The position numbers were made by a program, and so were the translations under genes. A stretch of DNA of 64,000 nucleotides. It comes from Candidatus Omnitrophota bacterium. Lineage in GTDB: Bacteria; Omnitrophota; Gorgyraeia; Zapsychrales; Fredricksoniimonadaceae. The notes beneath the pieces were generated by a model. That model made no database searches, was not told where the DNA came from, and saw only the letters and a program-made list of their open reading frames with translations. Below are positions 3,032 to 23,395 of the stretch, piece by piece. Location of the stretch: NCBI GenBank assembly GCA_030650275.1, contig JAUSEK010000011.1, positions 73,890 through 137,889 on the forward strand, given 5' to 3'. Numbering within the stretch: the stretch's first letter is position 1; each line of letters begins with the position of its first letter.

Positions 3032-4000
3032 ATGCAAGCGCCGATCTTATCCATTATTTTTTCTTTTCGCAATGAGGAGCATGTTCTTCAGGAATTAATT
3101 TCACGCGTCAGGGCCGTATTGACCAAAGAAAAAGAACATAACGCCATTGCCGGATGGGAATTAATTTTTGTCAATGATGCTTCCAATGACAGGTCTTTAG
3201 AGGTCCTTTTGCGGCATGCCCAGAACACGAAAGACATTAAAATAATCACCATGTCGAGGGTTTTTGGAGTTGCTCCCTGTGTCATGGCGGGTTTGGCCCA
3301 AGCCCAAGGGGACGCGGCCATATATATGGATGCTGATCTGCAGGATCCTCCGGAATTGATCCCGGAAATGCTTAAAGCCATGCGCGAACAAAACGCCGAT
3401 GTGGTGCATACCGTGCGCCGTTCGCGTCAGGGAGAAAGCGCCTTTAAACTGTTCATTACAAAGATCGGCTACCGTATCCTCAATCGCTATTCAACAGTGC
3501 CCATCCCCCAGGAAGCGGGAGATTTCAAACTGCTTTCCCGGCGGGTCATTGACCATTTGCTGCTGCTCAAAGAGATCAATCCGTTCATGCGCGGGCTTGT
3601 GGCATGGGTCGGGTTTAAACAGGTTTTCATTGCCTATGACCGCCAGGCGCGGTTCGCGGGAAAAAGCAAATTTTTTGTGCTCGGGAAAAAGGTGATCTCC
3701 AATTTTTTAAACTCCGCCATCATCAATTTTTCTTCCGTGCCTTTGAAGATCGCTTCTTATTGCGGTTTATCTGCTATTTTAGTAAGTATCCTGTTTGCCA
3801 TGAATGCTTTGATCCAAAATATCAATGGCGCGGCGATCCCCGGGTGGACGGCCCTGATGCTGGTCATTATTTTTATCGGAGGGGTGCAGTTGTTTTGTAT
3901 CGGCATGATCGGCCTGTATTTAAATGCTGTCCACGAACAAAGTAAAATGCGGCCTAATTATATCATCGAGTCGACCTATGGGATCAACCCCCGCGCGTAA
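3032..4000 (+). CDS. GT2 polyprenyl-phosphate sugar transferase (GtrB/ArnC/DPM1-like) with two C-terminal TM helices
   Basis: MQAPILSIIFSFRNEEHVL...FVNDASND...DADLQDP motifs of GT-A GT2 enzymes. C-terminal hydrophobic segments are typical of bactoprenol-phosphate glycosyltransferases. Confidence 0.75.
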   Translation: MQAPILSIIFSFRNEEHVLQELISRVRAVLTKEKEHNAIAGWELIFVNDASNDRSLEVLLRHAQNTKDIKIITMSRVFGVAPCVMAGLAQAQGDAAIYMDADLQDPPELIPEMLKAMREQNADVVHTVRRSRQGESAFKLFITKIGYRILNRYSTVPIPQEAGDFKLLSRRVIDHLLLLKEINPFMRGLVAWVGFKQVFIAYDRQARFAGKSKFFVLGKKVISNFLNSAIINFSSVPLKIASYCGLSAILVSILFAMNALIQNINGAAIPGWTALMLVIIFIGGVQLFCIGMIGLYLNAVHEQSKMRPNYIIESTYGINPRA

Positions 4001-5018
4001 CAGTTATCACCGCCTTAAGGCCAAACTTTTCCTGACAGGGATGCTCAGCGGAAAGATCACTGTCCGCAAACTTTGGAATGTGCTCCTGTGCACCGCGGCC
4101 TATTTATTAAAAACAAAAAGATCAGCAAGCTCTCCTTTTATCCTTAGCCTTGAACTATGGAATGAATGCAACGCGGGCTGTCTTTTCTGCCGTGATAAAA
4201 AAGGGACCATTTACAACCTCAATCCCAACAACCCCACCTTAGGCAGTATCTCAAAAGGGAAAATGCCGGCTGAAATGGCCATGGACATCATCGACCAGGT
4301 CAAAAAAGATGTTTTGATCGCGGTGCTTTACACCAACGGCGAGCCGTTGCTGTATAAAGACCTTGGAAAAGTGATCCGGTTTGCCACCGAACGCAAGGTG
4401 ATGACCATGATCTCAACGAACGGCTTGTTGTTCACCGAACAGAACGCCCGAGAGATATTGGCGGCGGGACTGGACTTTATCAAGATCCAGTTGGGAGGGT
4501 TCACCCAGGACATTTACAGCATTCAGATCCGTTACGGCGAGGTTGAGAAACTTAAAGAAAATATCCGCATGGTGGCGCGCATCAAAAAAGAATTGAATAC
4601 GCCCGCTTTGATCATGATCGATTGGATTACCTATAATTATAATCGCCACCAGATCCCCTTGATCCGTCAATTCTGTCAGGAATTGGGCGTGATGTTGAGT
4701 TTCCGTCAGGGAAATCCCCGGGGAGGATTGGAAGGCAAAGAAACAGCCCTTCCGACCACGACACTTCCCATTTCTTGCGACTGGTTATGGAAAGCCATGC
4801 AGGTCAATTTCAACGGGGACATGCTGCAATGCTGTGAAGGGGTGGTCTGGAGTAATCTGAAACCATACGCCACCTACAAAGCCGGCGACAGGAATGTCCG
4901 TGAAATTTGGAACGGCCCCGCCGCCATAGCCACCCGTGAGTTGATGGCGACCAAAGGGCGTAAATCCATGCCCATCTGCAGTCAATGCCAACGTTCAGGC
5001 GTGGCATTTAAATGGTGA
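3978..5018 (+). CDS. Radical SAM enzyme with C-terminal SPASM/twitch-like Cys cluster
   Basis: CxxxCxxC motif (ELWNECNAGCLFC). C-terminal cysteines (CDW..., CCEG..., PICSQCQ) are consistent with an auxiliary Fe-S domain. Start is ambiguous (3978 or 4044). Confidence 0.6.
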   Translation: MGSTPARNSYHRLKAKLFLTGMLSGKITVRKLWNVLLCTAAYLLKTKRSASSPFILSLELWNECNAGCLFCRDKKGTIYNLNPNNPTLGSISKGKMPAEMAMDIIDQVKKDVLIAVLYTNGEPLLYKDLGKVIRFATERKVMTMISTNGLLFTEQNAREILAAGLDFIKIQLGGFTQDIYSIQIRYGEVEKLKENIRMVARIKKELNTPALIMIDWITYNYNRHQIPLIRQFCQELGVMLSFRQGNPRGGLEGKETALPTTTLPISCDWLWKAMQVNFNGDMLQCCEGVVWSNLKPYATYKAGDRNVREIWNGPAAIATRELMATKGRKSMPICSQCQRSGVAFKW

Positions 5019-5025
5019 GGGATCA

Positions 5026-6180
5026 ATGCGTTTGATACGGATTTGGACTGGAATTTTATTTGTATTGTTGGCGGCCCTTGGATTGTGGATCGCTTCCCAG
5101 AGGCCCTTATGGAACGATGAGTATTACTCTTTAATCTATATTACCTTGGGGCAGTCCTACAAAGCGATCCTCATAGGACTTCACGAAGGCGGTAATTCTC
5201 CGTTATCTTTTGTTTTACAAAAGGCGCAATGCGACCTGTTTTCTTATCATCTCCCGCAGGAATGGGTCAAAGGGCATTGGGAAGGGACCTATGTCTTTGA
5301 TCAGTTCTTTTTAAGGATACAATCAGTTGTTTTCATGTCAGCGGCCTTGAGCGCGGTATTTTATTATTTTGGACGGCGTCATTCCTGGGGCATGGGCCTC
5401 TACGCGTTAGCCGTGACCATGACATCTTTCTTGTTTTGGATCCATTGGACAGAAGCCCGGCCGTACGCGGAGTGGTTTGCTCTGAGCCTGTTCCAGATCT
5501 TATTTTTATTGAATATTTTAGAAGGCCCGGCCGATCAAAATAAAAAGAGCTGGTACGGTCTTGTTTTCATTCATTGGCTTTTGGCTTTGACGTCGATCAT
5601 CAGTGCCGTTCAAATTACGGCGGCCGGCGCGGTATTATGGATGTTCCGTCGTCCACGGCTCCTTTGGTATGTTCCCCTGGTCCTGCTCCCTCTGGGGATA
5701 TGCGGATTTTATTACATTCATTCGCCGCAATACCTCTCTTACTTTGTTGATGGTCCGGTGGCCTTAATTAATGCTAATATCTCCAAGGATCGATTATTTT
5801 TTATTTTTATGTCCGCCCTTGTTCTTATTGTTCAATGCCGGGGGAAGGATTGGAAGGCGCATTTGGAAATTAAATATTTAGCTTTTTTTCTTTTGATGCT
5901 GGGGGGCTTCGGGCTCCTGCTTTTGAAATTGAAGTATGGTCAAGGAGAAGGACAGAAAATTTTGCAAATTTCTAACCGTTATTTTTTGTCATTGACCCCA
6001 GCGGGGATCGTGGGGACCGTGCTTTTGTCGGAATATTTGATACGCGCCTTTCCGTCAAGGGTATGGAGAGCGGCGGCGATCGTGATTTTGGCCGGCTTTT
6101 TAGTTTTCCGTGCATACAGAACGATCCAACTGGTTCCCAACCAGATCTTACCTACCGGTCTAGAATTCATTAAGAGCTAA
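5026..6180 (+). CDS. Polytopic membrane protein, putative GT-C fold glycosyltransferase (ArnT/PMT-like)
   Basis: About 10 predicted hydrophobic helices, with an N-terminal TM followed by a DE-containing loop (RPLWNDEYYSL). It lies downstream of the GtrB-like gene, as in three-component Gtr glycosylation modules. Confidence 0.4.
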   Translation: MRLIRIWTGILFVLLAALGLWIASQRPLWNDEYYSLIYITLGQSYKAILIGLHEGGNSPLSFVLQKAQCDLFSYHLPQEWVKGHWEGTYVFDQFFLRIQSVVFMSAALSAVFYYFGRRHSWGMGLYALAVTMTSFLFWIHWTEARPYAEWFALSLFQILFLLNILEGPADQNKKSWYGLVFIHWLLALTSIISAVQITAAGAVLWMFRRPRLLWYVPLVLLPLGICGFYYIHSPQYLSYFVDGPVALINANISKDRLFFIFMSALVLIVQCRGKDWKAHLEIKYLAFFLLMLGGFGLLLLKLKYGQGEGQKILQISNRYFLSLTPAGIVGTVLLSEYLIRAFPSRVWRAAAIVILAGFLVFRAYRTIQLVPNQILPTGLEFIKS

Positions 6181-6200
6181 AGGTCATCGATAACTATCTC

Positions 6201-6229
6201 TTGACAGGGGAAAGAGAGAGTTTATAATT
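6201..6229 (+). promoter_or_regulatory. Consensus sigma70 promoter: TTGACA, 17-bp spacer, TATAAT
   Basis: cTTGACAggggaaagagagagttTATAATtgg. Perfect -35 and -10 hexamers at optimal spacing in one of the few intergenic gaps. Confidence 0.6.
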
Positions 6230-6234
6230 GGGAT

Positions 6235-6249
6235 GTTCAATAATTGAAC
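6235..6249. promoter_or_regulatory. Perfect 7-1-7 palindrome GTTCAATAATTGAAC at the predicted transcription start (candidate operator)
   Basis: Seen directly in the sequence. An identical palindrome recurs at 18020-18034 downstream of a second copy of the promoter. Confidence 0.45.
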
Positions 6250-6262
6250 TTCCTAACCGACT

Positions 6263-6820
6263 ATGCCTAAAGAACTTTTAAACGAACGCGAATTTGAATT
6301 GGTGAATATCGTGGGGGCGCAATTAGGCGTTAACCAGCGTGATATTTCCCGCCAATTGAGGGTTTCCTTAGGAATGACAAACATGCTTTTGCATCGTTTG
6401 ATCGCCAAAGGGTATATCCGCATCCATCAGCTGAATAAGCGCAAAATACAATACCTTTTGACCCCCAAGGGGTTTTCCGAGAAATTGCGCAAATCCATCA
6501 GATATACCATTAAAACCCTCAATTCCATTGAAACCATTAAGGATCATTTAAAAACAATTTTTAAGGAATCGTACCAAGAAGGAGAAAGAAACTTCAATAT
6601 TCTTGGCCATTCTGATCTGGCCTTGTTGGCGGAAATGGCTATCAAGGAAGTTTCCAAGGGAGATCACACCATCGTATTTATTCAAACACTTCAGGAAGCC
6701 AATAAAGATGCGTTGGCCTGTATTTGTAAGGAAGGGTATGAAGACCTACCTCTCCAGGGACCAAAAATGATGAATTTGATCACAGAGTTAGCTCAACGGG
6801 AAACAAGATTCATTCATTAA
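6263..6820 (+). CDS. Winged-helix transcriptional regulator (MarR-like N-terminal HTH) with uncharacterised C-terminal domain
   Basis: N-terminal ~80 aa (LVNIVGAQLGVNQRDISRQLRVSLGMTNMLLHRLIAKGYIRI) has the HTH-wing pattern. First gene after the consensus promoter/palindrome. Confidence 0.5.
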   Translation: MPKELLNEREFELVNIVGAQLGVNQRDISRQLRVSLGMTNMLLHRLIAKGYIRIHQLNKRKIQYLLTPKGFSEKLRKSIRYTIKTLNSIETIKDHLKTIFKESYQEGERNFNILGHSDLALLAEMAIKEVSKGDHTIVFIQTLQEANKDALACICKEGYEDLPLQGPKMMNLITELAQRETRFIH

Positions 6821-6826
6821 CAAAGG

Positions 6827-7888
6827 ATGGTTATGGATACGACTATTTTAGACAACAAAAGTATTTTGATCACCGGGGGAACAGGATCATTCGGTAAGAA
6901 AATGGTCCAGATCGTTTTAAAACAATTCCGTCCCAAGCGATTGGTCGTTTTTTCCAGGGATGAATTAAAACAATTTGAAATGGCGCAAAAATGGAAACCA
7001 TCCGAGCATCCTTGCCTGGAATATGTGCTGGGGGACGTGCGCGACGGCAACCGTTTATGCCGGGTTTTTGAAGGCATTGATTATGTGGTCCACGCGGCGG
7101 CGCTCAAGCAGGTCCCCGCGGCCGAGCGCAATCCCGATGAATATATTAAAACCAATGTCATGGGGGCGATGAACATCATTGAAGCGGCATTGCATTGCCA
7201 TGTCAAGAAAGTGATCGCCCTGTCAACGGACAAGGCGTGCAACCCCATCAACCTTTACGGGGCGACAAAATTATGTTCCGACAAACTGTTCGTGGCTGAA
7301 AACAACGCGGTCCTTCCGTCGAGAACGCAATTTTCAGTCGTGCGTTACGGCAATGTCGTCGGTTCCAGGGGTTCCGTCATCCCATTTTTCAGGGAACGCG
7401 CCAAAACAGGGGTCTTGCCCATCACTGATGATCGCATGACGCGTTTTTGGATCACCCTGGATCAGGCCGTTTATCTGGTGCTGATGTCCCTGCAAAGGTC
7501 CACGGGGGGAGAAATTTTTGTCCCTCGTATTCCGTCCATGAAGATCACTGACCTGGCCACGGCGATCGCCCCGGACTGCAAACAAGAAGTCATTGGCATC
7601 CGCCCCGGAGAAAAGATCCATGAAACATTGATCAGCGAGGATGAGGCCAGGTCTGCCATTGAATTTCAGGATTGTTTTGTGGTCCAATACAATGCCGACC
7701 AACGGGACATTCTTTTGGCCCAGGCAGGAAAACATAAAGGGAAGGCCTGTCCGGAAGGATTCACTTATCGTTCGGATTCCAATACCGAATGGATGACGGT
7801 CAACGAATTGAAAGAAATGATTGAGCGCATTGCGGACGATTATGCCATTGAAAAGTCGCGTTTTTCCATGACGGGCGTTTCCCAATAG
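6827..7888 (+). CDS. pseB: UDP-N-acetylglucosamine 4,6-dehydratase (inverting), PseB/FlaA1 family
   Basis: N-terminus MVMDTTILDNKSILITGGTGSFGKKMVQIVL is near-identical in pattern to H. pylori FlaA1/PseB (MLDNQTILITGGTGSFGK). Length 353 aa. Confidence 0.8.
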   Translation: MVMDTTILDNKSILITGGTGSFGKKMVQIVLKQFRPKRLVVFSRDELKQFEMAQKWKPSEHPCLEYVLGDVRDGNRLCRVFEGIDYVVHAAALKQVPAAERNPDEYIKTNVMGAMNIIEAALHCHVKKVIALSTDKACNPINLYGATKLCSDKLFVAENNAVLPSRTQFSVVRYGNVVGSRGSVIPFFRERAKTGVLPITDDRMTRFWITLDQAVYLVLMSLQRSTGGEIFVPRIPSMKITDLATAIAPDCKQEVIGIRPGEKIHETLISEDEARSAIEFQDCFVVQYNADQRDILLAQAGKHKGKACPEGFTYRSDSNTEWMTVNELKEMIERIADDYAIEKSRFSMTGVSQ

Positions 7889-7898
7889 GTGTAAGGAT

Positions 7899-10061
7899 AT
7901 GGCAAAACAACAAAGAATGATCATCACAGGCGTCAGCGGCCTTTTGGGCAATAATCTCGCCCTTTGCCTGAAGGATGATTACACCATTTTAGGATTGTTC
8001 CATCAGCATCCCTGCGCCATTGAAGGCAATAGGCTTGAGCGGGTAGATTTAACGGACCCGGACCGGGTTAGAACTGTCGTCAGGGAGTTTCAACCAGATG
8101 TTATTATCCATTGCGCGGCCCTTTCGGATATCGAATATTGCGAAAGTCATCAGGATCTGGCCACCAAGGCCAATGTTCTGGCAACACGCCATCTCATCGA
8201 AGCCATTGACCAGACCCCCTGCCAATTTATTTTTATCTCAACAGATTCTATTTATGATGAGACCAAGGGTCCTTTGATCAATGAACAGGGAGCGGTCAAT
8301 CCTTCCAATCATTATTCATGGACAAAGATCGAAGCGGAAAAAGAGGCCTTAAAGCATAAAAATACTCTTATTCTAAGGACCAATATTTTTGGCTGGAATA
8401 TCCAGGAAAAATTCAGTTTAGGCGAGTGGATCATCCACGAACTTTCGCATCAGACCAAGATCAAGGGGTTCAGCGACGCTGAATTTTCATCCATTTATAC
8501 TTTTGAACTGGCAAAGCTCATTGACCGCGCCATCCAAAAAAAGATCCGGGGGGTTTACAATGCCGCCAGCCGCACGCATTTGTCAAAATACCAATTTGCC
8601 CGCGCGATCGCCCGGCGCTTTCAACTGGATGAGACATTGATCGAGCCGATCCCTATCGGTGATTTTGCTTTTAAAGCCAAACGCCGGAAGTTCATGGCTT
8701 TGGACACAGGCAAAATACAGCGGGCTTTGAATGTTCCGTGTCCGACCATTGAAGAATGCATAGAGAAGTTCTATCAGGATCATCAAAAAGGAGTGCCTGC
8801 CAGGATCAAACAAGGCCGGCAGGGGAGCGTTTATCCGCAACTTGATTTTATTCCTTATGGGCGTCAGTGCATTGAAGATGATGATATCCGGGCGGTGACG
8901 GATGTTTTAAAATCAGGGTATCTGACGCAAGGGCCCAAGATCGCGGAATTTGAAGAGGCATTGAAAGCAAAGACCGGCGCTTCATTTGCCGTTGCCGTCA
9001 ATTCCGGAACGTCTGCTTTACACATCGGCTGTCTGGCGGCCGGTATTCATGCCGGCGATGAGGTGATCACCTCGCCCAATTCGTTTGTGGCGTCCGCCAA
9101 TTGCATCGTTTATTGCGCAGGCACGCCGGTTTTTGCCGATATTGATCCCAAGACCTATAATATTTCCCCCCTGGCGCTCGAGCAGAAAATGACAAGGGCC
9201 ACCAGGGCCGTCATCCCTGTTCATTTTGCCGGCCAAAGCTGTGATATGCAGGCGATCCATGATATTGTCCGGCAAAAACAGAAGGAATACGGCCACAAAA
9301 TTTATATCATTGAAGACGCTTCCCATGCGTTGGGGTCCTCTTATAAGGCCAAGAAAGTCGGGTCCGGCGCGTATTCGGACATGACGGTCTTGAGTTTTCA
9401 TCCGGTCAAACACATCACCACGGCCGAAGGGGGCGCTGTCCTGACCAATGACGAGAAATTATGCCATTCCTTAAGACGGTTTCGTTCCCATGGGATCACC
9501 AATGATCCCCTGGAATTGGTCAATGAGGATGAGGCCTTTGAGCCCTCTCACGAGGGGGAACGGATCAAGCGGCCCTGGTACTATGAGCAGCAGGATTTAG
9601 GGTTCAATTACCGGATCACGGACATTCAGTGCGCTTTAGGCATTTCCCAGATCAAGAAATTGGACCGTTTTATAAAGCGCAGAAAAGAGATCGTCGGGCG
9701 TTACAATGCCGCTTTTGAAGGGCTTGATCATGTCACGACACCCTTTGAAGCCGATTTTTGTCAAAGCAATTTTCATCTCTATGTTTTGCTGTTTGATTTT
9801 GGGAAATTGGGGATGTCCCGCGCGCATTTGATGCTTGAGTTGCGCAAAAAGGGCATTCAAACGCAGGTGCATTACATTCCCATCCCCACGCAGCCCTATT
9901 ATCAAAAGAAATTCGGATACCGACGGGGTCAGTATCCCCATGCGGAGAATTATTATCAGCGCTGTTTATCGATCCCTCTTTTCGCCGCGATGAAGGACGA
10001 GGAGGTCGGGAAGGTCATTGAAGCCATTCGTAGTTTAAAACCGGTCCCCGTCCACCCATGA
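7899..10061 (+). CDS. pseC: Fusion protein: N-terminal RmlD-like NAD(P)-dependent 4-ketoreductase domain (~300 aa) plus C-terminal PseC-type DegT aminotransferase (~410 aa)
   Basis: N-terminal domain has GxxGxxG (ITGVSGLLG) and YxxxK (NHYSWTK), with the RmlD substrate-binding pattern STDSIYDE...NP.N.Y. C-terminal domain matches recalled PseC strongly (SHALGSSYKAKKVGSGAYSDMTVLSFHPVKHITTAEGGAVLTND...RSHGI). 720 aa total. Confidence 0.75.
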   Translation: MAKQQRMIITGVSGLLGNNLALCLKDDYTILGLFHQHPCAIEGNRLERVDLTDPDRVRTVVREFQPDVIIHCAALSDIEYCESHQDLATKANVLATRHLIEAIDQTPCQFIFISTDSIYDETKGPLINEQGAVNPSNHYSWTKIEAEKEALKHKNTLILRTNIFGWNIQEKFSLGEWIIHELSHQTKIKGFSDAEFSSIYTFELAKLIDRAIQKKIRGVYNAASRTHLSKYQFARAIARRFQLDETLIEPIPIGDFAFKAKRRKFMALDTGKIQRALNVPCPTIEECIEKFYQDHQKGVPARIKQGRQGSVYPQLDFIPYGRQCIEDDDIRAVTDVLKSGYLTQGPKIAEFEEALKAKTGASFAVAVNSGTSALHIGCLAAGIHAGDEVITSPNSFVASANCIVYCAGTPVFADIDPKTYNISPLALEQKMTRATRAVIPVHFAGQSCDMQAIHDIVRQKQKEYGHKIYIIEDASHALGSSYKAKKVGSGAYSDMTVLSFHPVKHITTAEGGAVLTNDEKLCHSLRRFRSHGITNDPLELVNEDEAFEPSHEGERIKRPWYYEQQDLGFNYRITDIQCALGISQIKKLDRFIKRRKEIVGRYNAAFEGLDHVTTPFEADFCQSNFHLYVLLFDFGKLGMSRAHLMLELRKKGIQTQVHYIPIPTQPYYQKKFGYRRGQYPHAENYYQRCLSIPLFAAMKDEEVGKVIEAIRSLKPVPVHP

Positions 10062-10954
10062 CATTATTTTCGCGTATAGGACTTGGGACGGCACAGTTTG
10101 GCCAGGATTACGGGATCGCCAATAAAGGCGGGAAGATCCCCCGGGAAGTGGTTTTTGATATTCTCAAGTCAGCGGCGGACCGCGGCATTCTTCTTTTAGA
10201 CACGGCCTGTGCCTATGGAGACAGTGAAGCTGTTATCGGAGAATTTATCAAGAAGGGTCCATCCCCGTTTCGGGTGGTGTCAAAATTTTCCCTGGATCCT
10301 TACAAAGAAGGAGGATTAAAGCAGCTTTTACGGCAATCTCTGGCAAAAATGAACACCGCCGGCGTTTATGGATATTTGGCCCACCGTTTGACGGATGTTT
10401 TGAATGATGAGCGCCTTTGGGCGGATATGCTGGAGGTCAAAAGGCAAGGCCTTGTTCAAAAGATCGGGGTTTCCGTCTATTCACCGCGTGAACTGGAAGA
10501 ACTGGACAAGCGCGATATCAAATTTGACCTCGTTCAATTTCCTTACAGTATTTTTGACCGGCGATTTGAAAAATGCATGCACGGATTGAAACAAAAGAAT
10601 ATTGAAATTCACGCGCGGTCCGTCTTTTTGCAAGGCCTTGCATTTATGAAGGCCGATCAACTGCCGGGGCATCTCAAAGAAGCGGGGGTCCCGTTGAGGG
10701 GACTTGCGGAACTTTCGCTCAAGCACGGCATTTCCGTTCAATCGCTGTGTTTAAATTTTGCTTTATTAAATCCTCATATTGATCGGGTCATCATGGGGGT
10801 GGGCGGCTTACGGCATTTTGAAGAAAATTTGAAAGGCCTTGAGGATTTTGATAAGGTCCGCGGTATTTATGATCAACTGCAGGGATTGAGCATCGGCAAT
10901 GAAGATATTCTTCTGCCTAACCGTTGGCCGTTAGCAATGCCGAGCAGGCGATAG
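10058..10954 (+). CDS. Aldo/keto reductase family oxidoreductase
   Basis: IGLGTAQFG...LLDTACAYGDSE motifs of AKR (TIM barrel) enzymes. Start overlaps the upstream stop (ATGA). Confidence 0.7.
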   Translation: MTLFSRIGLGTAQFGQDYGIANKGGKIPREVVFDILKSAADRGILLLDTACAYGDSEAVIGEFIKKGPSPFRVVSKFSLDPYKEGGLKQLLRQSLAKMNTAGVYGYLAHRLTDVLNDERLWADMLEVKRQGLVQKIGVSVYSPRELEELDKRDIKFDLVQFPYSIFDRRFEKCMHGLKQKNIEIHARSVFLQGLAFMKADQLPGHLKEAGVPLRGLAELSLKHGISVQSLCLNFALLNPHIDRVIMGVGGLRHFEENLKGLEDFDKVRGIYDQLQGLSIGNEDILLPNRWPLAMPSRR

Positions 10955-10965
10955 GGAATATTCTT

Positions 10966-12294
10966 ATGTTAAAGACAGAAAAAATAAATAAGGGTGCGGC
11001 ATTGTGGAAAAAAGCAAAAACGTTTATTCCGGGCGGCAATCAACTGCTTTCCAAACGCTCGGAGATGTTTTTGCCTGACCAGTGGCCGGCGTATTACAAG
11101 AAAGCCAGGGGCTGTGAGATTTGGGACCTTGATGACCGTCACTATTACGATATGAGCATCATGGGCATTGGGAGCTCTCCTTTGGGCTACGCCCATGAGG
11201 AAGTCAACGCGGCGGTGCACCAGGCGATCGATGAAGGGAATATGACGACCTTGAATTGCCCCCAGGAGGTTGAGCTTGCCCAAAAGCTGGTGGATCTGCA
11301 TGCCTGGGCGGATATGGCGCGTTTTGCCCGTACCGGAGGGGAGGCCTGCGCCATTGCGGTGCGCATTGCCCGCGCCTTTACTCAAAAAGACAGGATCGCT
11401 TTTTGCGGTTATCATGGCTGGCATGATTGGTATCTGGCGGCTAATCTATCAGACGCAAAGAATCTGGACCAACTCCTTTTGCCGGGCCTTAGTCCGGTCG
11501 GAGTTCCCCAACACTTAAAGGGCAGCGCCATCCCTTTTTATTATGGAGATGCGCAAGCGTTTAAGGAATTGGTCCAACAGCATAAAGCTGATCTGGGCGT
11601 TGTGATCATGGAGGTTGCCAGACACTCCCAGCCGGATATTGATTTCTTGCGTACGATCCGTGAAATGACCCGGGACATGGGGATCGTGCTGATCTACGAC
11701 GAGATCTCCTCCGGATTCCGGTTGAATACCGGAGGGCTCCACCTGTTGTATGACCTTCAGCCGGACATGGCTGTTTTAGGAAAGGCCTTGGGCAATGGAC
11801 ATCCCATTTCCGCGATCTTGGGAAGAGAAAAAGTCATGCAGGCCGCTCAAGAGACATTCATCAGCAGTACTTATTGGACGGAACGCACGGGCTATGCCGC
11901 AGCCCTTGAGGTGTTAAAGATCTATGAACGGGACGCTGTGCCCCAGCAATTGATCAAACAAGGAAATAAGATCCGATTGGGTTTGGAAGGCCTATTCAAG
12001 AAACATCAATTGAATATTGAGATTGAGGGACTCGCATCAAACCCCATTTTTATGATTAAAGAAAAAGACGGACTTCTGATCAAGTCCGTGTATACGCAAG
12101 AAATGTTAAAACGCAGCTTTTTAGCTTCTTCCGTTATCTATGTATCCATAGCGCATACGGACAAGATCATTGATCTATTCTTGGCGAATGCTGATGAAGT
12201 TTTTGGATGCATATCTGCCGCGATCAAAGAGGGTCAATTGGCGTCATTATTGAAGGGGCCTGTTTGTCACAGTGGATTTAAAAGGTTAAATTAA
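10966..12294 (+). CDS. Class III PLP aminotransferase, glutamate-1-semialdehyde 2,1-aminomutase-like
   Basis: FIPGGNQLLSKR...ARGCEIWDLDDRHYYD...DEISSGFR pattern of HemL-like aminotransferases. Confidence 0.7.
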   Translation: MLKTEKINKGAALWKKAKTFIPGGNQLLSKRSEMFLPDQWPAYYKKARGCEIWDLDDRHYYDMSIMGIGSSPLGYAHEEVNAAVHQAIDEGNMTTLNCPQEVELAQKLVDLHAWADMARFARTGGEACAIAVRIARAFTQKDRIAFCGYHGWHDWYLAANLSDAKNLDQLLLPGLSPVGVPQHLKGSAIPFYYGDAQAFKELVQQHKADLGVVIMEVARHSQPDIDFLRTIREMTRDMGIVLIYDEISSGFRLNTGGLHLLYDLQPDMAVLGKALGNGHPISAILGREKVMQAAQETFISSTYWTERTGYAAALEVLKIYERDAVPQQLIKQGNKIRLGLEGLFKKHQLNIEIEGLASNPIFMIKEKDGLLIKSVYTQEMLKRSFLASSVIYVSIAHTDKIIDLFLANADEVFGCISAAIKEGQLASLLKGPVCHSGFKRLN

Positions 12295-13040
12295 TGGTCT
12301 TAGCGATCGTGCAGGCAAGAATGTCAGCATCACGGTTACCGGGCAAGGTCATGAAGAAAATCTTGGGCAAACCGATCATCGGGTATTTGTTGGACCGGCT
12401 TAAAGCATCCAAACGCATTGACAAAATTATTTTGGCCACATCTACCAATCAAGAAAACGATGAACTTGTGTCTTATGTTCAAGGCTTGGGATTTGATGTA
12501 TGGCGGGGGAGCGAAGAAGATGTGTTAGGACGCTTCTTTTTTTCCGCTAAGAAATACGCGGCTGATACGGTTGTCCGTATAACGGGAGATTGCCCGCTGA
12601 TAGACACGCGGATCTGTGACCAATTGATAGATGAATTTACCAAACATCAGGTTGATTATGCTTTTCTGGCACCTAGTTTTGCCGAAGGCCTGGATTGTGA
12701 AGTTCTGAAAGCAACGGCTTTAGAAAAATGCCACCAACATGCCAAATTAGCTTCAGAACGCGAACATGTGACGCCCTATATCAAGAACCATCAGGACCAG
12801 TTTAAGTTATTTTGCATGGATAACCGCGAAGATCATAGCGGTTATCGCGTTGTCGTGGATGAACCGGAAGATCTTGCCATGTTAGAGATCTTATTCAATG
12901 ATTTCTACAAAAAGATACATCCGCAGGGCAGTTTTGATGAAATTAAAGCATACCTGGACCAGCATCCTGAATTGGTCCGGATGAATTCTCATGTGGTCCG
13001 TAATGAGGGATTTATCAGATCGCTTCAGAAGGAAAGGTGA
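12294..13040 (+). CDS. pseF: Nonulosonic acid cytidylyltransferase (CMP-pseudaminate synthetase-like; CTP_transf_3 family)
   Basis: MVLAIVQARMSASRLPGKV...GDCPLID pattern of PseF/SpsF/NeuA-type cytidylyltransferases. Confidence 0.6.
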   Translation: MVLAIVQARMSASRLPGKVMKKILGKPIIGYLLDRLKASKRIDKIILATSTNQENDELVSYVQGLGFDVWRGSEEDVLGRFFFSAKKYAADTVVRITGDCPLIDTRICDQLIDEFTKHQVDYAFLAPSFAEGLDCEVLKATALEKCHQHAKLASEREHVTPYIKNHQDQFKLFCMDNREDHSGYRVVVDEPEDLAMLEILFNDFYKKIHPQGSFDEIKAYLDQHPELVRMNSHVVRNEGFIRSLQKER

Positions 13041-13041
13041 A

Positions 13042-13596
13042 ATGAAAAAGGGAGTCCATCTTAAAACAAAACGCTTGGACCTTAAGACCTTGCGTGTCAG
13101 GCATATTTCGGATCAATACGTCAATGGTTTAAATGATGGACAGGTGAATAAATTTTTATTGGCCCCCAGGCAGAAGAAGCAAACAAGAAAAACGGTCAGG
13201 GATTATGTTGAGGCCAATCTCAATTCACCATCGGGCCTTCTATTCGGATTATTTCATAAGACCACAGGGGATCTGATAGGCACTTTGCGCGTTCATGACA
13301 TCTCCTATTTTCACTATTCTTGTTGTTTAGGGATCTGTTTATTTGACAGGTCCTATTGGGGCAAAGGTTACGCGCAAGAGGCCTTAAAAGAGGCCGTTCG
13401 TTTCGCGTTTAAAGAATTGAGGATGCATTACATTGAAGCGGGCATTTACCAGGGGAATAGGGCATCAGTACAATTGTTCAAAAAATGCGGATTCCGGAAA
13501 GTCGCGACCCATAGGGATAAGTACCGGTATGACGCGTCTTTTAGACCAGTGTTTATTTTTGGCAAGACAAATCCAGATTTTAAGCTTCGGTCATGA
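13042..13596 (+). CDS. GNAT family N-acetyltransferase (RimL-like)
   Basis: GNAT acetyl-CoA-binding motif region (GKGYAQEALKEAVRFAF) in RimL-like arrangement. Start chosen at MKKGVHLK after RBS AGGAAAGG. Confidence 0.6.
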   Translation: MKKGVHLKTKRLDLKTLRVRHISDQYVNGLNDGQVNKFLLAPRQKKQTRKTVRDYVEANLNSPSGLLFGLFHKTTGDLIGTLRVHDISYFHYSCCLGICLFDRSYWGKGYAQEALKEAVRFAFKELRMHYIEAGIYQGNRASVQLFKKCGFRKVATHRDKYRYDASFRPVFIFGKTNPDFKLRS

Positions 13597-13605
13597 GGGA
13601 TTTTT

Positions 13606-15681
13606 GTGTACTTTATTGAAAAATTAACAGTTTATTCGTGGTTGTTTTCTGTTCTTCCCGAGATCCAGCGGCGATCCAAGGCGGATAAAGATCAGGGGAA
13701 TACGCTTTTATATTATGTGGATGCGTCTTGCCAGGGGCTATGGTTGTCCCGATCGATGGCGGCTTTTCTTAAAATTGAGATCAAGCGGCTGGATTTCACT
13801 TTTTTTGACGCTAAAGACAAAAATGGCGATTTTCTTTGGTGGACAGTCATGTTTGAGGATCTTGCGGATCTGCAGAAATATATGTTCCGGTATCCGGCCT
13901 TACAGGAGATCATCCAGAAGAATAAGGCGGATGAGCACCTAAGGTTTTTTCTGATGAGACGTATTTTGTATTTTGATTCAAGCCTGTTTATCTTGATGCA
14001 CATTCTCCTGGTGCTCCGGGTCGCTTCTTTAAAGCGGAAAAAAGAGGAAAGGATCAACGTGTTCCTTTTTTCCTCCCAAAGGCCGTGGCTGTCCCAGGTC
14101 AAGAAATGGGCGGAGGCCCGGAATGTCAATATTATTCCCATGCGCCGGGGGCGCGGTTTTAGCGTCAAAGAGATCATGGCAGGCCCCGGTTTTATCAAAC
14201 ATTCCATCAAACAAGTCCTGTTCGCCTGGATGGGCACGCAAAAGGCCCTTGGAATGGCGGGTCAGGGCGATCAGAGGCATAGTCAGGACCTGTCACCCAA
14301 GATAGCCGTTGAATTTTATGGACATCTTAATCTTGATTCCCCGCAATTGAGCTCGGACCTATTTTTCTGTCAACAGGCAAGCACCTTGAATAAAGATATC
14401 CTGATCTATTTTCAGCATCCGGTGTTCCCGGTCTCGGATCAAGCGTGGGATGAGATCAAGGCGCATGGGATGTCAGCGGTTGTTATGAATCCCAGGGCAA
14501 CCACCACCTCCCGGGTCCCTTTATTCAATTATGTCGGTCAGTTGAGAGAAGAAGACCGCTCCAGGGGGGCAGCCGATGACAAGGGTAAGGATGATATCAG
14601 AAGAGATCTGTCCCGACAGGTCGCAGAATATTATAAACAGAAGGATTATTGGTCCAATTTCTTTGCGCGGCACAACATCAAAATGCATGTGTCGTGGTAT
14701 AAGATCGAATCCAAATATTTTCCGATGGCGGATGCTTTGAATGGCTTGGGAGGGGTATCTGTTATTTATCAAAGGTCTTTTGAAAGCGATTCAAATCCAT
14801 GGATGGTGACGAAAGCGGACGTTGTTTTTGGTTTTTCCAAGTTTGGGGCGCATTTGGGAAAAGACACGGATTCTGTGATCCCTTATTATGTTGTCACGGG
14901 CTATTTGGGAGACCACCGGTATCCAATTCTCAAAAAAGAAGCAAGCGTGATACGCCATGATCTGCAGCGTCATGGGGCCAATAGGATATTGGCCTATTTT
15001 GATGAAAGTTCCGTAGATGATCCGCGATGGAATATAGGGCATCAGGTGACGCAGGAGAATTACGCGTTCTTGCTCAAGAAAATCTTGGACACACCATCGC
15101 TCGGATTGATATTTAAGCCAAAGATATATTCAAATTTACGCAAAAGATTGGGGGAGGATATTGCCGATCTTTTGGATCGCGCCCAAGAGACGGGGAGATG
15201 TTATATATTTAAAGAAGTCGCGTTTCATCTGGGATCGCACCCTCCCGCGATAGCGGCATTGGCATCAGATATCGCCATTCATGGCCATCTTTGCGCGGCA
15301 ACAGCGGGCGTTGAATCAGCTTTGACGGGAACACCGACGCTGATGCTGGACAGGGAAGGTTGTTCCAAGAGCCCGGTCTATCAGTTAGGAGAAGGCCGGG
15401 TTGTTTTTAAAAATTGGGATGATCTCTGGAAAGCATGCCTTGATCACTGGGGCCATTCAGACGGGAGGCCCGGTTTTGGCGATTGGTCGCCGATGTTGGA
15501 TGAGCTGGACCCATTCCGCGATGGCCGGGCGGCCCAACGGATGGGCAGCTATCTTGAATGGATCTCCCAAGGGTTAAAAGCAAAGATCCCCCGCGAAATG
15601 ATTCTGGCGGATGCCGCCCAGCGATACGCCAAGATCTGGGGGCAGGACAAGGTATTGGCCATCAATCATGGCAGGTTATAA
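13606..15681 (+). CDS. Large (691 aa) hypothetical protein; C-terminal region has a GT-B/MurG-like donor-binding motif (possible PseG-type UDP-sugar hydrolase or nonulosonate transferase)
   Basis: C-terminal HGHLCAATAGVESALTGTPTLMLD resembles the G-rich loop/E/GxP motif of MurG/PseG-type GT-B C-domains. The N-terminal ~400 aa has no motif I recognise. It sits where pseG would be expected. Confidence 0.3.
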   Translation: MYFIEKLTVYSWLFSVLPEIQRRSKADKDQGNTLLYYVDASCQGLWLSRSMAAFLKIEIKRLDFTFFDAKDKNGDFLWWTVMFEDLADLQKYMFRYPALQEIIQKNKADEHLRFFLMRRILYFDSSLFILMHILLVLRVASLKRKKEERINVFLFSSQRPWLSQVKKWAEARNVNIIPMRRGRGFSVKEIMAGPGFIKHSIKQVLFAWMGTQKALGMAGQGDQRHSQDLSPKIAVEFYGHLNLDSPQLSSDLFFCQQASTLNKDILIYFQHPVFPVSDQAWDEIKAHGMSAVVMNPRATTTSRVPLFNYVGQLREEDRSRGAADDKGKDDIRRDLSRQVAEYYKQKDYWSNFFARHNIKMHVSWYKIESKYFPMADALNGLGGVSVIYQRSFESDSNPWMVTKADVVFGFSKFGAHLGKDTDSVIPYYVVTGYLGDHRYPILKKEASVIRHDLQRHGANRILAYFDESSVDDPRWNIGHQVTQENYAFLLKKILDTPSLGLIFKPKIYSNLRKRLGEDIADLLDRAQETGRCYIFKEVAFHLGSHPPAIAALASDIAIHGHLCAATAGVESALTGTPTLMLDREGCSKSPVYQLGEGRVVFKNWDDLWKACLDHWGHSDGRPGFGDWSPMLDELDPFRDGRAAQRMGSYLEWISQGLKAKIPREMILADAAQRYAKIWGQDKVLAINHGRL

Positions 15682-15691
15682 AGAAGGTTAA

Positions 15692-16471
15692 ATGATGCCG
15701 GTCCATATCGGAATAAAAGTTTGGGCGCAAAACACCGCTTATATCCCGCACATTCAAAAATTGGGCCAACAGGGCCATTGTGATTTTGTGGAGATCTATG
15801 TCGGTGTCAAGGCAGAACAAGAAGAGGCCAGGTGTTGGCAGGATTTAGACCTGCCCATACGCTTGCACGCGCCCCACAGCTATGGCGGGTTTAATCCCGC
15901 GGACAGTGAGGGGATGGAGTTCAAACAAGAGGCCTTGCGTCGCCTTGAGAAGTTCCGGCGGCTTTTAGGGCCTGCCAGCATTATTTTTCATCCGGGGATC
16001 ATAGGCCCTTTGCAGGAAAGCATCAGGCAATATAAATTATTTAAACAGCAATTCCCGAAAATATTTAAAGCGGCGTTCATTGAGAATAAGCCGTCCATAG
16101 GTCCCAAGCAAGAATCTTGCCGGGGAGATAGCGTTGAAGAAATACGGCCATTGATGCAGGCCATCGGTTTTGGCTTTTGCCTGGACTTTGGCCACGCGGC
16201 TTGTCATGCCGCGTGGGCCAAGAAAGATTGGCGTCAGGTCGTTGAGGATTTTATGCAATTACGCCCGCAATTATTTCACATTTCCGACGGAGACATCCAT
16301 TCTCCCGTAGACAAACACCGTCATTTGGGGGCCGGCAGTTTTCCATTAAAGCAGATGCTGGATTTTTTACCCAAGGATGCGTTCTTAACGCTGGAAACTC
16401 CTCATGATCATGAGGACAACCTGGACGATTTTTCCAAAGACGCGGATTTTATCAGGGGTCTATTAAAATGA
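15692..16471 (+). CDS. Xylose isomerase-like TIM-barrel protein (sugar phosphate isomerase/epimerase family)
   Basis: Length and His/Asp/Glu spacing (FHPG..., DFGHA..., HISDG...) resemble AP-endonuclease-2/xylose isomerase-like TIM barrels. Confidence 0.5.
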   Translation: MMPVHIGIKVWAQNTAYIPHIQKLGQQGHCDFVEIYVGVKAEQEEARCWQDLDLPIRLHAPHSYGGFNPADSEGMEFKQEALRRLEKFRRLLGPASIIFHPGIIGPLQESIRQYKLFKQQFPKIFKAAFIENKPSIGPKQESCRGDSVEEIRPLMQAIGFGFCLDFGHAACHAAWAKKDWRQVVEDFMQLRPQLFHISDGDIHSPVDKHRHLGAGSFPLKQMLDFLPKDAFLTLETPHDHEDNLDDFSKDADFIRGLLK

Positions 16472-17502
16472 TGATCCAGGGCAGGCGGATAGGGGCGGGG
16501 CAGCCCTGTTATGTCATTGCCGAATTATCCGCGAACCACGGCGGAAGCCTTGAGCGCGCTTTGCGCATCGTTCGCGCGGCTAAAGAGGCAGGCGCGGATG
16601 CCATCAAGCTGCAGACATACACGGCAGACACAATGACCCTTGATGTGGACAATGAGTATTTTCGCATCAAAGACGGGTTATGGGGTGGTAAGAATTTATA
16701 TCAATTGTATCAGAAGGCCTCGACGCCATGGGAATGGCACAAGACATTAAAAGAAGAAGCAGATAAGCTGCAGATGCATTGCTTCTCCACCCCTTTTGAC
16801 GAAACAGCGGTGGATTTTCTGGAGTCATTGGGGGTTGCGGCATACAAGATCGCTTCTTTTGAATTGGTGGATGACCTTTTATTGATCAAGGTGGCCCATA
16901 CCCGAAAACCTGTCATTATGTCCACGGGCATGGCCACGTTAGAAGAGATCCGGCATGCCCTGCAGGTGCTCCATGACAACGGAACAAAGGAAATAGCATT
17001 GCTCAAATGCGTCAGCGCCTATCCCGCACCCGCACAGGAGATGCATTTGCGCACAATGTCCGATATGCGCGCACGTTTTAAGTGTCCGGTGGGTTTATCA
17101 GACCATACGTTAGGCCCGACGGTGGCCATTGCTGCCGTTGCCGTGGGCGCCGAATTATTGGAGAAACACATCAAATTAAACCAGGAAGACGATACGCCTG
17201 ACGCCGTATTTTCCATGACCCCTGAGGCCTTTGGAGATATGGTCCAGGCCTTGCGTTTGACCGAGTCCGCTTTAGGGGAAGTGCGCTATCAGAAGACGCA
17301 GCAAGAAGGCAATTCAGTGGTTTTTCGCCGTTCCATTTTTGTTTCCAGAGACATTAAAAAGGGCGAAGTATTCACATCGGAAAATATTAAAGTCATACGC
17401 CCGGGACAGGGCTTAAGTCCGAAGTATTATGCGCAATTGCTGGGCAGGAAGGCCAAACAAGATATTTCCCGGGGAACGCCGTTATCGAGGGCTATGATGT
17501 GA
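16468..17502 (+). CDS. pseI: N-acylneuraminate/pseudaminate synthase (NeuB/PseI/LegI family) with C-terminal SAF domain
   Basis: IAELSANHGGSLERALRIVRAAKEAGADAIKLQTY is the hallmark N-terminus of NeuB-family synthases. 344 aa. Confidence 0.8.
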   Translation: MMIQGRRIGAGQPCYVIAELSANHGGSLERALRIVRAAKEAGADAIKLQTYTADTMTLDVDNEYFRIKDGLWGGKNLYQLYQKASTPWEWHKTLKEEADKLQMHCFSTPFDETAVDFLESLGVAAYKIASFELVDDLLLIKVAHTRKPVIMSTGMATLEEIRHALQVLHDNGTKEIALLKCVSAYPAPAQEMHLRTMSDMRARFKCPVGLSDHTLGPTVAIAAVAVGAELLEKHIKLNQEDDTPDAVFSMTPEAFGDMVQALRLTESALGEVRYQKTQQEGNSVVFRRSIFVSRDIKKGEVFTSENIKVIRPGQGLSPKYYAQLLGRKAKQDISRGTPLSRAMM

Positions 17503-17969
17503 TGGAGCTTTCATTTCGAGACGCGGTGTGGGAAGATGCAGAATTTCTTTTGTCATTGCGCAATGATCCTTCAGTTTGGCCCCACTGTATTCAAGCACGT
17601 CCTGTTGGCCGGAGGGAGCATCTGGAGTGGTTTAAAGACGTATTGCGGCGGGATGATGTAAGAATTTTTATTTTGTTTCAGGACCGTATTTCCATTGGGC
17701 AGGTGCGGTATGATCTTAAGCAGGAGGGGGCTTATGTCAGCATTTCCCTTTGCGCAGATCACCAAGGGCAGGGGTTTGGCGTCCAGGCGCTTAAGTTGAC
17801 GGGTCAAAAGATCTTTTCTCTAGCCAATGTGACGGCTTTAAAAGCCCTTATTAAAGAAAATAATAAGGGATCCTTGCGGTGTTTTAAAAATGCAGGCTTC
17901 TGCCGTATAGACAGAGAAAGAAATGGGAACGAATATTTTATGATCATGGAGCTTCGCAAAGCCAGTTAA
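17499..17969 (+). CDS. pseH: Small GNAT N-acetyltransferase, PseH-like
   Basis: 156 aa GNAT immediately after the synthase gene. Size and position match PseH. Confidence 0.55.
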   Translation: MMELSFRDAVWEDAEFLLSLRNDPSVWPHCIQARPVGRREHLEWFKDVLRRDDVRIFILFQDRISIGQVRYDLKQEGAYVSISLCADHQGQGFGVQALKLTGQKIFSLANVTALKALIKENNKGSLRCFKNAGFCRIDRERNGNEYFMIMELRKAS

Positions 17970-23387: not shown

Positions 23388-23395
23388 GGATCATT

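Follow-up and report, generated by a model that had tools for sequence, protein, structure and literature searches.

The gene at positions 7899–10061 of a 64,000-nucleotide stretch of a Candidatus Omnitrophota genome (assembly GCA_030650275.1, contig JAUSEK010000011.1, forward-strand positions 73,890 to 137,889; hereafter, the window) encodes a 720-amino-acid (aa) protein, in which an RmlD-like short-chain dehydrogenase/reductase (SDR) is joined to PseC, the aminotransferase of pseudaminic acid (Pse) biosynthesis. We propose, with moderate confidence and from comparison of sequences and gene neighborhoods, that this protein is a bifunctional branch-point enzyme, whose N-terminal domain would be an NAD(P)H-dependent 4-ketoreductase making UDP-6-deoxy-L-AltNAc (AltNAc, 2-acetamido-2-deoxyaltrose), fused to PseC. 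An earlier note on the window had offered two readings, namely, a branch point making both a 4-amino and a 4-hydroxy sugar, and a reductase re-purposed for another position; comparative genomics best supports the former, and the latter is less supported. The architecture of the fusion, the conservation of both active sites, the family membership of the two halves, and the synteny are direct observations, and we describe them first.

Architecture of the Fusion

The fusion is encoded by a single open reading frame (ORF) on the forward strand, with an ATG start, no in-frame stop codons, and an AAGGA Shine–Dalgarno-like motif 4 nt upstream of the ATG; a gap of 10 nt separates it from the stop codon of pseB. 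The GC content on the two sides of the junction is even (0.47 and 0.50). Pfam and NCBIfam split the protein in two, assigning residues 6–294 to RmlD_sub_bind and residues 317–712 to DegT/PseC. In a search over 5.8 billion proteins, both domains are carried by all 120 best matches examined (coverage 98–100%, identity 54–97%), which come from ENA, JGI, NCBI, and Logan assemblies, and the same junction is present in >115 independent full-length homologues. A scan of GTDB, one genome per species, with N-domain peptides as the query, yielded 183 relatives, and 50 of the best 80 loci, which were the ones examined, contain the PseC fusion. Among the carriers are Omnitrophota, Planctomycetota, Desulfobacterota, Nitrospirota/Thermodesulfovibrionales, Bacteroidota, candidate phyla radiation (CPR; Uhrbacteria), and Gammaproteobacteria metagenome-assembled genomes (MAGs).

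Since the same architecture recurs across independent assemblies and GTDB species, a frameshift or a mis-join in the window is in practice excluded; moreover, the linker region of the translation contains no Met codons able to start a separate PseC. The description of the gene in the earlier note as one continuous 720-aa ORF combining an SDR with PseC is thus borne out, and the search of other genomes for the same fusion that it called for was successful. The note knew of no such fusion in characterized Pse/Leg pathways; the fusion is no rarity but is widespread in MAGs of many phyla. Several homologues are automatically annotated by JGI as “PseC transaminase/dTDP-4-dehydrorhamnose reductase,” and the NCBI label is PseC only. 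A literature search for RmlD–PseC fusions or RmlD-like enzymes in Pse clusters returned nothing relevant.

The N-Terminal Domain Belongs to a Large SDR Family

The N-terminal domain is recognized by PF04321 (147 bits, residues 6–294) and scores 150.3 bits with the RmlD equivalog model TIGR01214, below the cutoff of 224.05. Its closest relatives in PDB are archaeal and bacterial RmlD (2ggs, 3sc6) and the regulatory protein MAT2B, which align along the full length with 77–87 bits in the single-sequence search (87 bits for the best RmlD) and 100–137 bits with the family profile. None of rmlA, rmlB, and rmlC was found among the window neighbors, which are PseB, an aldo-keto reductase (AKR), a class-III aminotransferase, a CTP_transf_3 protein, and PseI. 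Hence, of the initial label “RmlD-like 4-ketoreductase,” the assignment to RmlD-like SDRs stands and orthology with RmlD does not: by score and neighborhood, the domain is an SDR of the RmlD/MAT2B clade but not an RmlD orthologue.

The catalytic apparatus is preserved. In the alignment of 121 fusion proteins, Y139 and K143 are invariant (121 out of 121), position 115 is always Thr or Ser within the conserved S114-T/S115-D116, and the dinucleotide-binding motif T10-G11-x-S13-G14-x-L16-G17 is kept in at least 120 out of 121 sequences. Thus, the domain combines the extended-SDR fold (AlphaFold2 predicted local distance difference test score, pLDDT, >90) with the Ser/Thr–Tyr–Lys triad. The careful alignment revealed no loss of N-domain catalytic residues, and the motifs reported as intact in the earlier note (TGxSGxLG, T/S115, Y139, K143, and K504 of the PseC domain) are conserved throughout. 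Beyond the dinucleotide motif and the triad, invariance extends to residues of the C-terminal substrate lobe (E129, E147, R160, and R262), and family-specific motifs are present (RTNxFGWN, K171-x-S173, and F196-S-x-x-Y200-T).

HMMER, run exhaustively over 1.84 billion cluster representatives, retrieved 1003 representatives of the N-domain family at E<=1e-30. Of the 150 best-scoring ones, about nine in ten stand alone, with lengths of 260–330 aa and scores of 170–325 bits, far above canonical RmlD; their database names, “SDR family oxidoreductase” or “dTDP-4-dehydrorhamnose reductase,” are uninformative. Other fusions in the family are to a family 2 glycosyltransferase (GT2) and to a GNAT acetyltransferase. 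Judged by these sequences, the N-terminal domain comes from a distinct family that is large and for the most part unfused.

Fused and stand-alone members share 31 columns conserved at >=93% in both groups alike, and in columns conserved only in the fused group the majority residue of the stand-alone group is identical every time. Since the conserved columns coincide, the fusion did not alter what is conserved. In the neighbor-joining tree, constructed without support values, fused and stand-alone SDRs interleave, and the deepest branches are stand-alone. Taken together, the shared columns and the interleaving argue for one common function, whether the SDR is fused or not.

The C-Terminal Domain and the Linker

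Score, motif, and context all identify the C-terminal half as an ordinary PseC. TIGR03588 scores 505.7 bits on residues 317–712, above the cutoff of 423.5; S499-F-H501-P-V-K504, which is the DegT-family SxHxxK motif with the PLP (pyridoxal phosphate) lysine, is invariant (121 out of 121), and D473 and H476 are invariant or nearly so. In Foldseek comparisons, the PseC half matches ArnB, perosamine synthase, and PseC (2fnu) with target-normalized TM-scores of 0.88–0.93.

The mean identity to the query in the 121-sequence alignment is 50% for the N-terminal domain, 65% for the C-terminal domain, and 38% for the linker, and stand-alone SDR homologues terminate at about the linker position. The AlphaFold2 model of the full-length fusion, built with 117 sequences, has a mean pLDDT of 92 and a predicted template modeling score (pTM) of 0.66, with the lowest pLDDT (68–77) in the blocks covering residues 301–320. 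The model thus depicts two well-folded domains on a flexible tether, with their mutual orientation undefined. A Foldseek search of the entire fusion against PDB retrieved matches to the aminotransferase half only (query-normalized TM-score <=0.49) and no two-domain precedents.

Genomic Context of the SDR Family

The dehydratase encoded immediately upstream of the fusion is closest, among PDB sequences, to FlaA1 of H. pylori (2gn4, 380 bits), followed by CapE (237 bits) and Pen (6bwc, 211 bits). Judging by these scores, it is a FlaA1-type enzyme and not a Pen-type one.

The association with pseB extends far beyond the window. Among GTDB loci with enough upstream sequence, the SDR gene lies immediately downstream of a PseB orthologue (>40% identity to the window PseB) in 31 out of 39 fused and 15 out of 25 stand-alone loci, and in several further loci PseB is within 1.5 kb of the SDR gene. 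The pseB and SDR genes are tightly spaced or overlapping, and pseB is the most constant partner of the SDR, also where AKR, the class-III aminotransferase, and PseC are absent.

Two types of stand-alone loci are particularly relevant. In Ca. Scalindua (locus L023), pseB and a stand-alone SDR are followed by genes for LegB, LegC, a NeuD-type acetyltransferase, NeuB, NeuC, and a PtmE-like nucleotidyltransferase, each of the legionaminic-acid route genes scoring above its own NCBIfam cutoff. Because the legionaminic-acid route is supplied with a dehydratase and an aminotransferase of its own, PseB and the SDR form a self-contained two-step module, with nothing but the SDR nearby to consume the PseB product.

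The second type is found in Anaerolineae and other lineages (loci L075, L082, L092/L093), where pseB, the SDR, a NeuB-type synthase, and a GT4-family protein are often followed by a GFO/IDH/MocA oxidoreductase (present in the block in L075 and L092) and a CTP_transf_3 cytidylyltransferase. Locus L084 has a similar block, in which a methyltransferase gene separates the SDR gene from that of the synthase. In L075, L082, L084, and L092/L093, no DegT aminotransferase was found between the dehydratase and the synthase. The synthases of L075, L079, L082, and L084 are below both the NeuB and the PseI cutoffs (255–284 and 237–264 bits, respectively), and these scores mark a third type of synthase. The block of pseB, SDR, atypical NeuB, GT4, and CTP_transf_3 is a candidate pathway to a 7-hydroxy 3,5,9-trideoxy nonulosonic acid.

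The recurrent block occupies positions 1040–7010 in L075, 8985–16004 in L082, and 6988–13951 in L092; the latter locus also encodes a NeuB–CTP_transf_3 fusion of 594 aa.

Proposed Function

PseB is known to produce UDP-2-acetamido-2,6-dideoxy-beta-L-arabino-hexos-4-ulose, the C3-epimeric 2-acetamido analogue of the RmlD substrate. Since the upstream gene encodes PseB of the FlaA1 type, which would form this compound from UDP-GlcNAc, a 4-keto-6-deoxy-L sugar is predicted to be available next door; and since an enzyme of the RmlD clade is encoded next to PseB, reduction of the C4 ketone is the simplest role for the N-terminal domain. In the amino branch, the C-terminal PLP domain (Lys504) would transaminate C4, yielding UDP-4-amino-4,6-dideoxy-L-AltNAc, and GNAT, PseI, and the SpsF/FlmC-type cytidylyltransferase would then lead to a CMP-pseudaminic acid. 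In the other branch, the N-terminal SDR (T115/Y139/K143, NAD(P)H) would reduce the same 4-keto sugar to UDP-6-deoxy-L-AltNAc; the altro product is expected if the hydride is delivered as in RmlD, its C4 epimer being L-ido. This compound could serve as a second glycan building block, that is, a 6-deoxy-L-HexNAc donor, and within the fusion the two competing enzymes would be held at a 1:1 ratio.

We infer the substrate, cofactor, and stereochemistry of the N-terminal domain, as well as the simultaneous activity of both halves, from sequence and gene context. Loci where a stand-alone SDR directly follows pseB and PseC is absent speak for the reductase activity, and the SDR fusions to GT2 and GNAT fit a product serving as a nucleotide-sugar donor.

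Chemically related glycans are known. The O-antigen of Fusobacterium nucleatum ATCC 25586, as presented in two papers citing the structures of Vinogradov et al. (2017), contains 2-acetamido-2,6-dideoxy-L-altrose (L-6dAltNAc) and 5-acetimidoylamino-3,5,9-trideoxy-non-2-ulosonic acid, with a hydroxyl instead of an amine at C7 (PMC13014188, PMC9912281). A 7-hydroxy trideoxy nonulosonic acid is the expected product of condensation of 6-deoxy-L-AltNAc with phosphoenolpyruvate, and thus the predicted products would be ones that occur naturally. A literature search on the biosynthesis of fusaminic acid and L-6dAltNAc retrieved structures only, with no gene assignments found. A protein search seeded with an AT-rich archaeal member of the SDR family retrieved MAG and metagenome proteins only, with no F. 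nucleatum homologue among them.

More tentatively, the proposal may be extended to the entire SDR family. Its members could be UDP-4-keto-6-deoxy-L-AltNAc 4-reductases, opening the routes to L-6dAltNAc and, via the block of pseB, SDR, atypical NeuB, GT4, and cytidylyltransferase, to fusaminic-type 7-hydroxy 3,5,9-trideoxy nonulosonic acids; the fusion would then direct the PseB product, at a fixed stoichiometry, into both a 7-amino sugar (pseudaminic acid) and a 7-hydroxy or 6-deoxy-L-AltNAc sugar destined for one glycan.

Several considerations weigh against the branch-point proposal. Joining two competitors for one substrate is unusual, as fusions more often join sequential steps, and the fusion model gives no support for a fixed channel between the active sites, with no defined inter-domain geometry for coupling (pTM 0.66). 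The near-exclusive occurrence of AKR and the class-III aminotransferase with the fused form leaves room for different, sequential chemistry. The reductase activity of the family is a prediction of comparative genomics, the best PDB matches of the N-terminal domain include the non-catalytic MAT2B, and the tree in which fused and stand-alone SDRs interleave carries no support values. Finally, the link from the SDR to L-6dAltNAc of F. nucleatum is chemical rather than genetic.

Alternative Explanations

The reductase domain might act at a different, non-adjacent step of a modified Pse route, e.g., on a keto intermediate made with AKR, the class-III aminotransferase, and TIM-barrel proteins. The fusion would then connect steps of a single linear pathway, in the way that steps 1 and 3 of the 4-amino-4-deoxy-L-arabinose (Ara4N) route are combined in ArnA. 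Gene content agrees with this: the class-III aminotransferase is present in 33 out of 50 and AKR in 26 out of 50 fused loci, compared to two and one out of 28 stand-alone loci, respectively; homologue P0012 (1043 aa) is a triple fusion RmlD–PseC–AKR, and in L013 CTP_transf_3 is fused to the class-III aminotransferase (683 aa). In addition, no PseG homologue is detectable in the window, where neither a family match nor BLAST with PseG-like proteins of related loci produced anything; for this reason, the Pse pathway of the window is not canonical. However, the most constant partner of the SDR is pseB, which accompanies it in the absence of AKR, the class-III aminotransferase, or PseC; fused and stand-alone SDRs conserve the same residues; and the identified enzymes predict no keto intermediate besides the PseB product. 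We therefore consider sequential action unlikely.

Even less probable, in our view, is a non-catalytic role for the N-terminal domain, as an NAD(P)-binding scaffold or regulator modulating the activity or oligomerization of PseC or PseB. MAT2B, the model for such a role, is regulatory and yet keeps the Tyr-x-x-x-Lys motif, so an intact catalytic motif alone is no proof of activity, and in PDB its chains rank near the top of the matches, with 77 bits in the single-sequence search and 127 bits in the profile search. On the other hand, invariance reaches both the Ser/Thr–Tyr–Lys triad and the substrate lobe (E129, E147, R160, R262), the same family is also fused to a glycosyltransferase, and a scaffold in loci of the L023 type would leave the reactive 4-keto product of pseB with no nearby consumer. 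No methionine adenosyltransferase partner was found in the window.

The gene order dehydratase, SDR, aminotransferase is also that of the first three enzymatic steps, Pen, Pal, and Pam, in Bacillus thuringiensis (PMC5109656, PMC7439481), which suggests that a PseB-like enzyme might release UDP-6-deoxy-GlcNAc-5,6-ene for the SDR to complete the 4-keto-L-altro sugar for PseC. This is very unlikely. Pal (6bwl) matches the family profile with 43.4 bits and at positions 44–151 only, like generic SDRs, compared to 100–137 bits over the full length for RmlDs, and it is absent at E<=0.001 from the single-sequence N-domain search; the window dehydratase, in turn, exceeds the PseB equivalog cutoff and is of the FlaA1 type (380 bits vs. 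211 bits to Pen). We rejected the Pen/Pal analogy, as the homology to Pal stops at the SDR core and the dehydratase is of another type.

Lastly, the chance that two ordinary genes were merged by a sequencing or assembly error is negligible, given the continuous ORF, the junction shared by >115 homologues and 50 GTDB species genomes, and the lack of a Met start in the linker.

The Gene Cluster and the Rest of the Window

The fusion belongs to a Pse cluster spanning 6827..17969, which encodes PseB, PseC, PseI, and GNAT proteins, with no recognizable PseG, the UDP-sugar hydrolase, and no equivalog of PseF (Table 1). The start of the AKR gene overlaps the stop of the fusion by 4 nt. PseI, the sole NeuB-family protein of the window, is encoded 6.4 kb downstream of the fusion.

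Table 1. Features of the fusion gene and of the surrounding cluster. Coordinates are window positions.
Feature	Coordinates	Strand	Basis
MarR-like winged-helix regulator	6263..6820	+	Weak Pfam MarR/HTH matches
PseB	6827..7888	+	TIGR03589 489 bits, cutoff 407.75
Whole fusion ORF, 720 aa	7899..10061	+	ORF list, Pfam/NCBIfam, homologue alignment, AlphaFold2
N-terminal RmlD-like extended SDR, residues 6–294, proposed NAD(P)H-dependent C4-ketoreductase	7914..8780	+	PF04321, motifs
N-domain landmarks	TGxSGxLG 7926–7949; T115 8241–8243; Y139 8313–8315; K143 8325–8327	+	Codons
Inter-domain linker, about residues 300–316	8796..8846	+	Low pLDDT, low identity
PseC domain, residues 317–712, predicted PLP-dependent UDP-4-keto-6-deoxy-L-AltNAc 4-aminotransferase	8847..10034	+	TIGR03588
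Schiff-base Lys504	9408–9410	+	Invariant motif
Aldo-keto reductase (AKR)	10058..10954	+	PF00248 120 bits
Class-III aminotransferase, glutamate-1-semialdehyde aminomutase-like	10924..12294	+	PF00202 142 bits; NF004856 255 bits, below cutoff
SpsF/FlmC-type cytidylyltransferase (CTP_transf_3), probable CMP-nonulosonate synthetase	12294..13040	+	PF02348 112 bits
GNAT N-acetyltransferase, candidate PseH-type step	12991..13596	+	PF13302 86 bits; PseH 33 bits, weak
691-aa protein	13606..15681	+	No Pfam/NCBIfam match
PseI, pseudaminic acid synthase	16468..17502	+	TIGR03586 485 bits, cutoff 340
Second small GNAT, PseH-like	17499..17969	+	PF13302 49.5 bits; PseH 34 bits

The PseF model TIGR03584 scores only 32 bits on the cytidylyltransferase of the cluster, and this SpsF/FlmC-type protein probably stands in for PseF; Caulobacter FlmC is of the SpsF type. 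FlmC has been described as resembling cytidylyltransferases but not homologous to PseF, and it was the sixth enzyme when the pseudaminic-acid pathway was reconstituted in E. coli (PMC7591256). Pse-type clusters of Vibrionaceae and Moritella viscosa contain a fusion of an SpsF-like cytidylyltransferase domain with an AKR domain (PMC7371886). The trio of AKR, the class-III aminotransferase, and the cytidylyltransferase of the SpsF type is conserved (10058..13040 in the window, 10001–13132 in L003, also in L013) and is almost exclusive to the fused form.

The 691-aa protein is conserved in related loci (22–66% identity), and its homologue is encoded directly upstream of the RmlD-like gene in L008, L010, and L078. 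A profile of seven homologues found no relatives in PDB; residues 449–519 are faintly similar (E=0.5) to the C-terminus of the PseG-like protein of L001.

Upstream of pseB, the window encodes a GT2 protein, a radical-SAM/SPASM protein, a 384-aa membrane protein, and the MarR-like regulator. Homologues of the regulator (25–55% identity) precede pseB in 16 out of 50 fused and ten out of 28 stand-alone loci. The last three genes of this upstream region occupy 3924..6820 (+); the 384-aa protein is a multi-pass membrane protein with no family matches, whose N-terminus carries the sequence NDEYY, a possible GT-C-like motif. In loci of Omnitrophota and Planctomycetota (L054, L061, L062, L067, L068, L073), pseB is likewise preceded by homologues of the membrane protein and the regulator.

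The fusion opens a glycan-biosynthesis region, which continues on one strand to the end of the window. Besides the Pse genes, it holds a heptose module, genes for two further DegT aminotransferases, a split transketolase, several SDRs, and methyltransferases, among them C-methyltransferases, as well as a Wzt-type ABC exporter and two additional CTP_transf_3 genes. The heptose module includes an HldE-like bifunctional enzyme (19713..21245, +) with the adenylyltransferase domain at residues 18–159 and the PfkB kinase domain at residues 190–490, an arrangement opposite to that of the E. coli-type HldE model; its gene adjoins GmhA (18086..18715) and an SDR. The paralogous DegT pair (22272..24544, +) shows 48% mutual identity and about 30% identity to the PseC domain, and both proteins are below all equivalog cutoffs.

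In the split transketolase (26184..27961 and 30313..31563, +), the N-terminal and the pyrimidine-binding/C-terminal subunits are separate. It adjoins a sugar C-methyltransferase (Methyltransf_13/14), a Zn-dependent alcohol dehydrogenase, and other methyltransferases, which suggests synthesis of a branched-chain or C-methylated sugar; in L088, too, the SDR has a split transketolase of this kind nearby. The two further CTP_transf_3 genes and the gene for the Wzt-type ATPase are located at 45980..46759, 61017..62288, and 62255..62980 (+), in a window with a single NeuB-family synthase. The Wzt-type ABC transporter ATPase contains the carbohydrate-binding domain Wzt_C, which indicates ABC-transporter-dependent export of the glycan.

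Significance

Both halves of the fusion belong to well-known enzyme families, and nothing categorically new is present at this level. What is new is, firstly, a distinct and very large RmlD-like family as a fixed partner of PseB; secondly, its repeated fusion to, or splitting from, PseC; and thirdly, a concrete candidate for the 4-reduction that would yield L-6dAltNAc and 7-hydroxy trideoxy nonulosonic acids. If confirmed, this function would add the SDR family to the map of nonulosonic-acid pathways, allow glycan structures to be better predicted in many uncultured phyla, among them Omnitrophota, Planctomycetota, Desulfobacterota, CPR bacteria, and DPANN archaea, and correct annotations reading “dTDP-4-dehydrorhamnose reductase” and plain “PseC.”

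Comparison With Known Systems

The N-terminal domain resembles RmlD (TIGR01214; 2ggs, 3sc6, 1kc3) in belonging to the same extended-SDR subfamily with PF04321, in the full-length alignment, and in having the Thr–Tyr–Lys triad and the glycine-rich motif. The substrate of RmlD is a 6-deoxy-L-hexos-4-ulose, the C3 epimer of the PseB product without the 2-acetamido group. Unlike RmlD, the domain is below the equivalog cutoff, has its own motifs, is partnered with PseB of a UDP-GlcNAc pathway, and is fused to an aminotransferase.

With PseC of H. pylori and C. jejuni (2fnu), the fusion shares the equivalog-level score, the PLP lysine, and clustering with PseB and PseI; it differs in the additional N-terminal SDR of 300 residues and in a cluster lacking recognizable PseG and PseF. 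To our knowledge, the characterized PseC enzymes are single-domain proteins.

Parallels in pathway logic are WbvR, an RmlD-like protein, and the Pdeg/Preq pair. In both, a UDP-GlcNAc 4,6-dehydratase is followed by an NAD(P)H-dependent 4-ketoreductase encoded by an adjacent gene, the same logic that we propose for PseB and the SDR. The window, however, has a PseB-type dehydratase without C3 epimerization, so that L-altro (or L-ido) would be expected rather than L-rhamno, L-quinovo, or D-quinovo sugars; Preq, in addition, resembles GDP-4-keto-6-deoxymannose reductase and not RmlD (Pdeg/Preq are described in PMC4514872).

Pen, Pal, and Pam of B. thuringiensis present the same order of dehydratase, SDR, and aminotransferase at the head of a pseudaminic-acid pathway, but Pal shares only the generic SDR fold with the N-terminal domain (43 bits), and the window dehydratase is of the FlaA1 type.

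Finally, ArnA (formyltransferase/UDP-GlcA decarboxylase), together with ArnB, provides a precedent for the fusion of two nucleotide-sugar-modifying domains, including an SDR, within a route employing a DegT aminotransferase that acts on a UDP-4-keto sugar. The two domains of ArnA catalyze steps 1 and 3 of a linear route whose aminotransferase is a separate protein, whereas in the window fusion it is the aminotransferase that is joined to the SDR, probably as its competitor for a single substrate.

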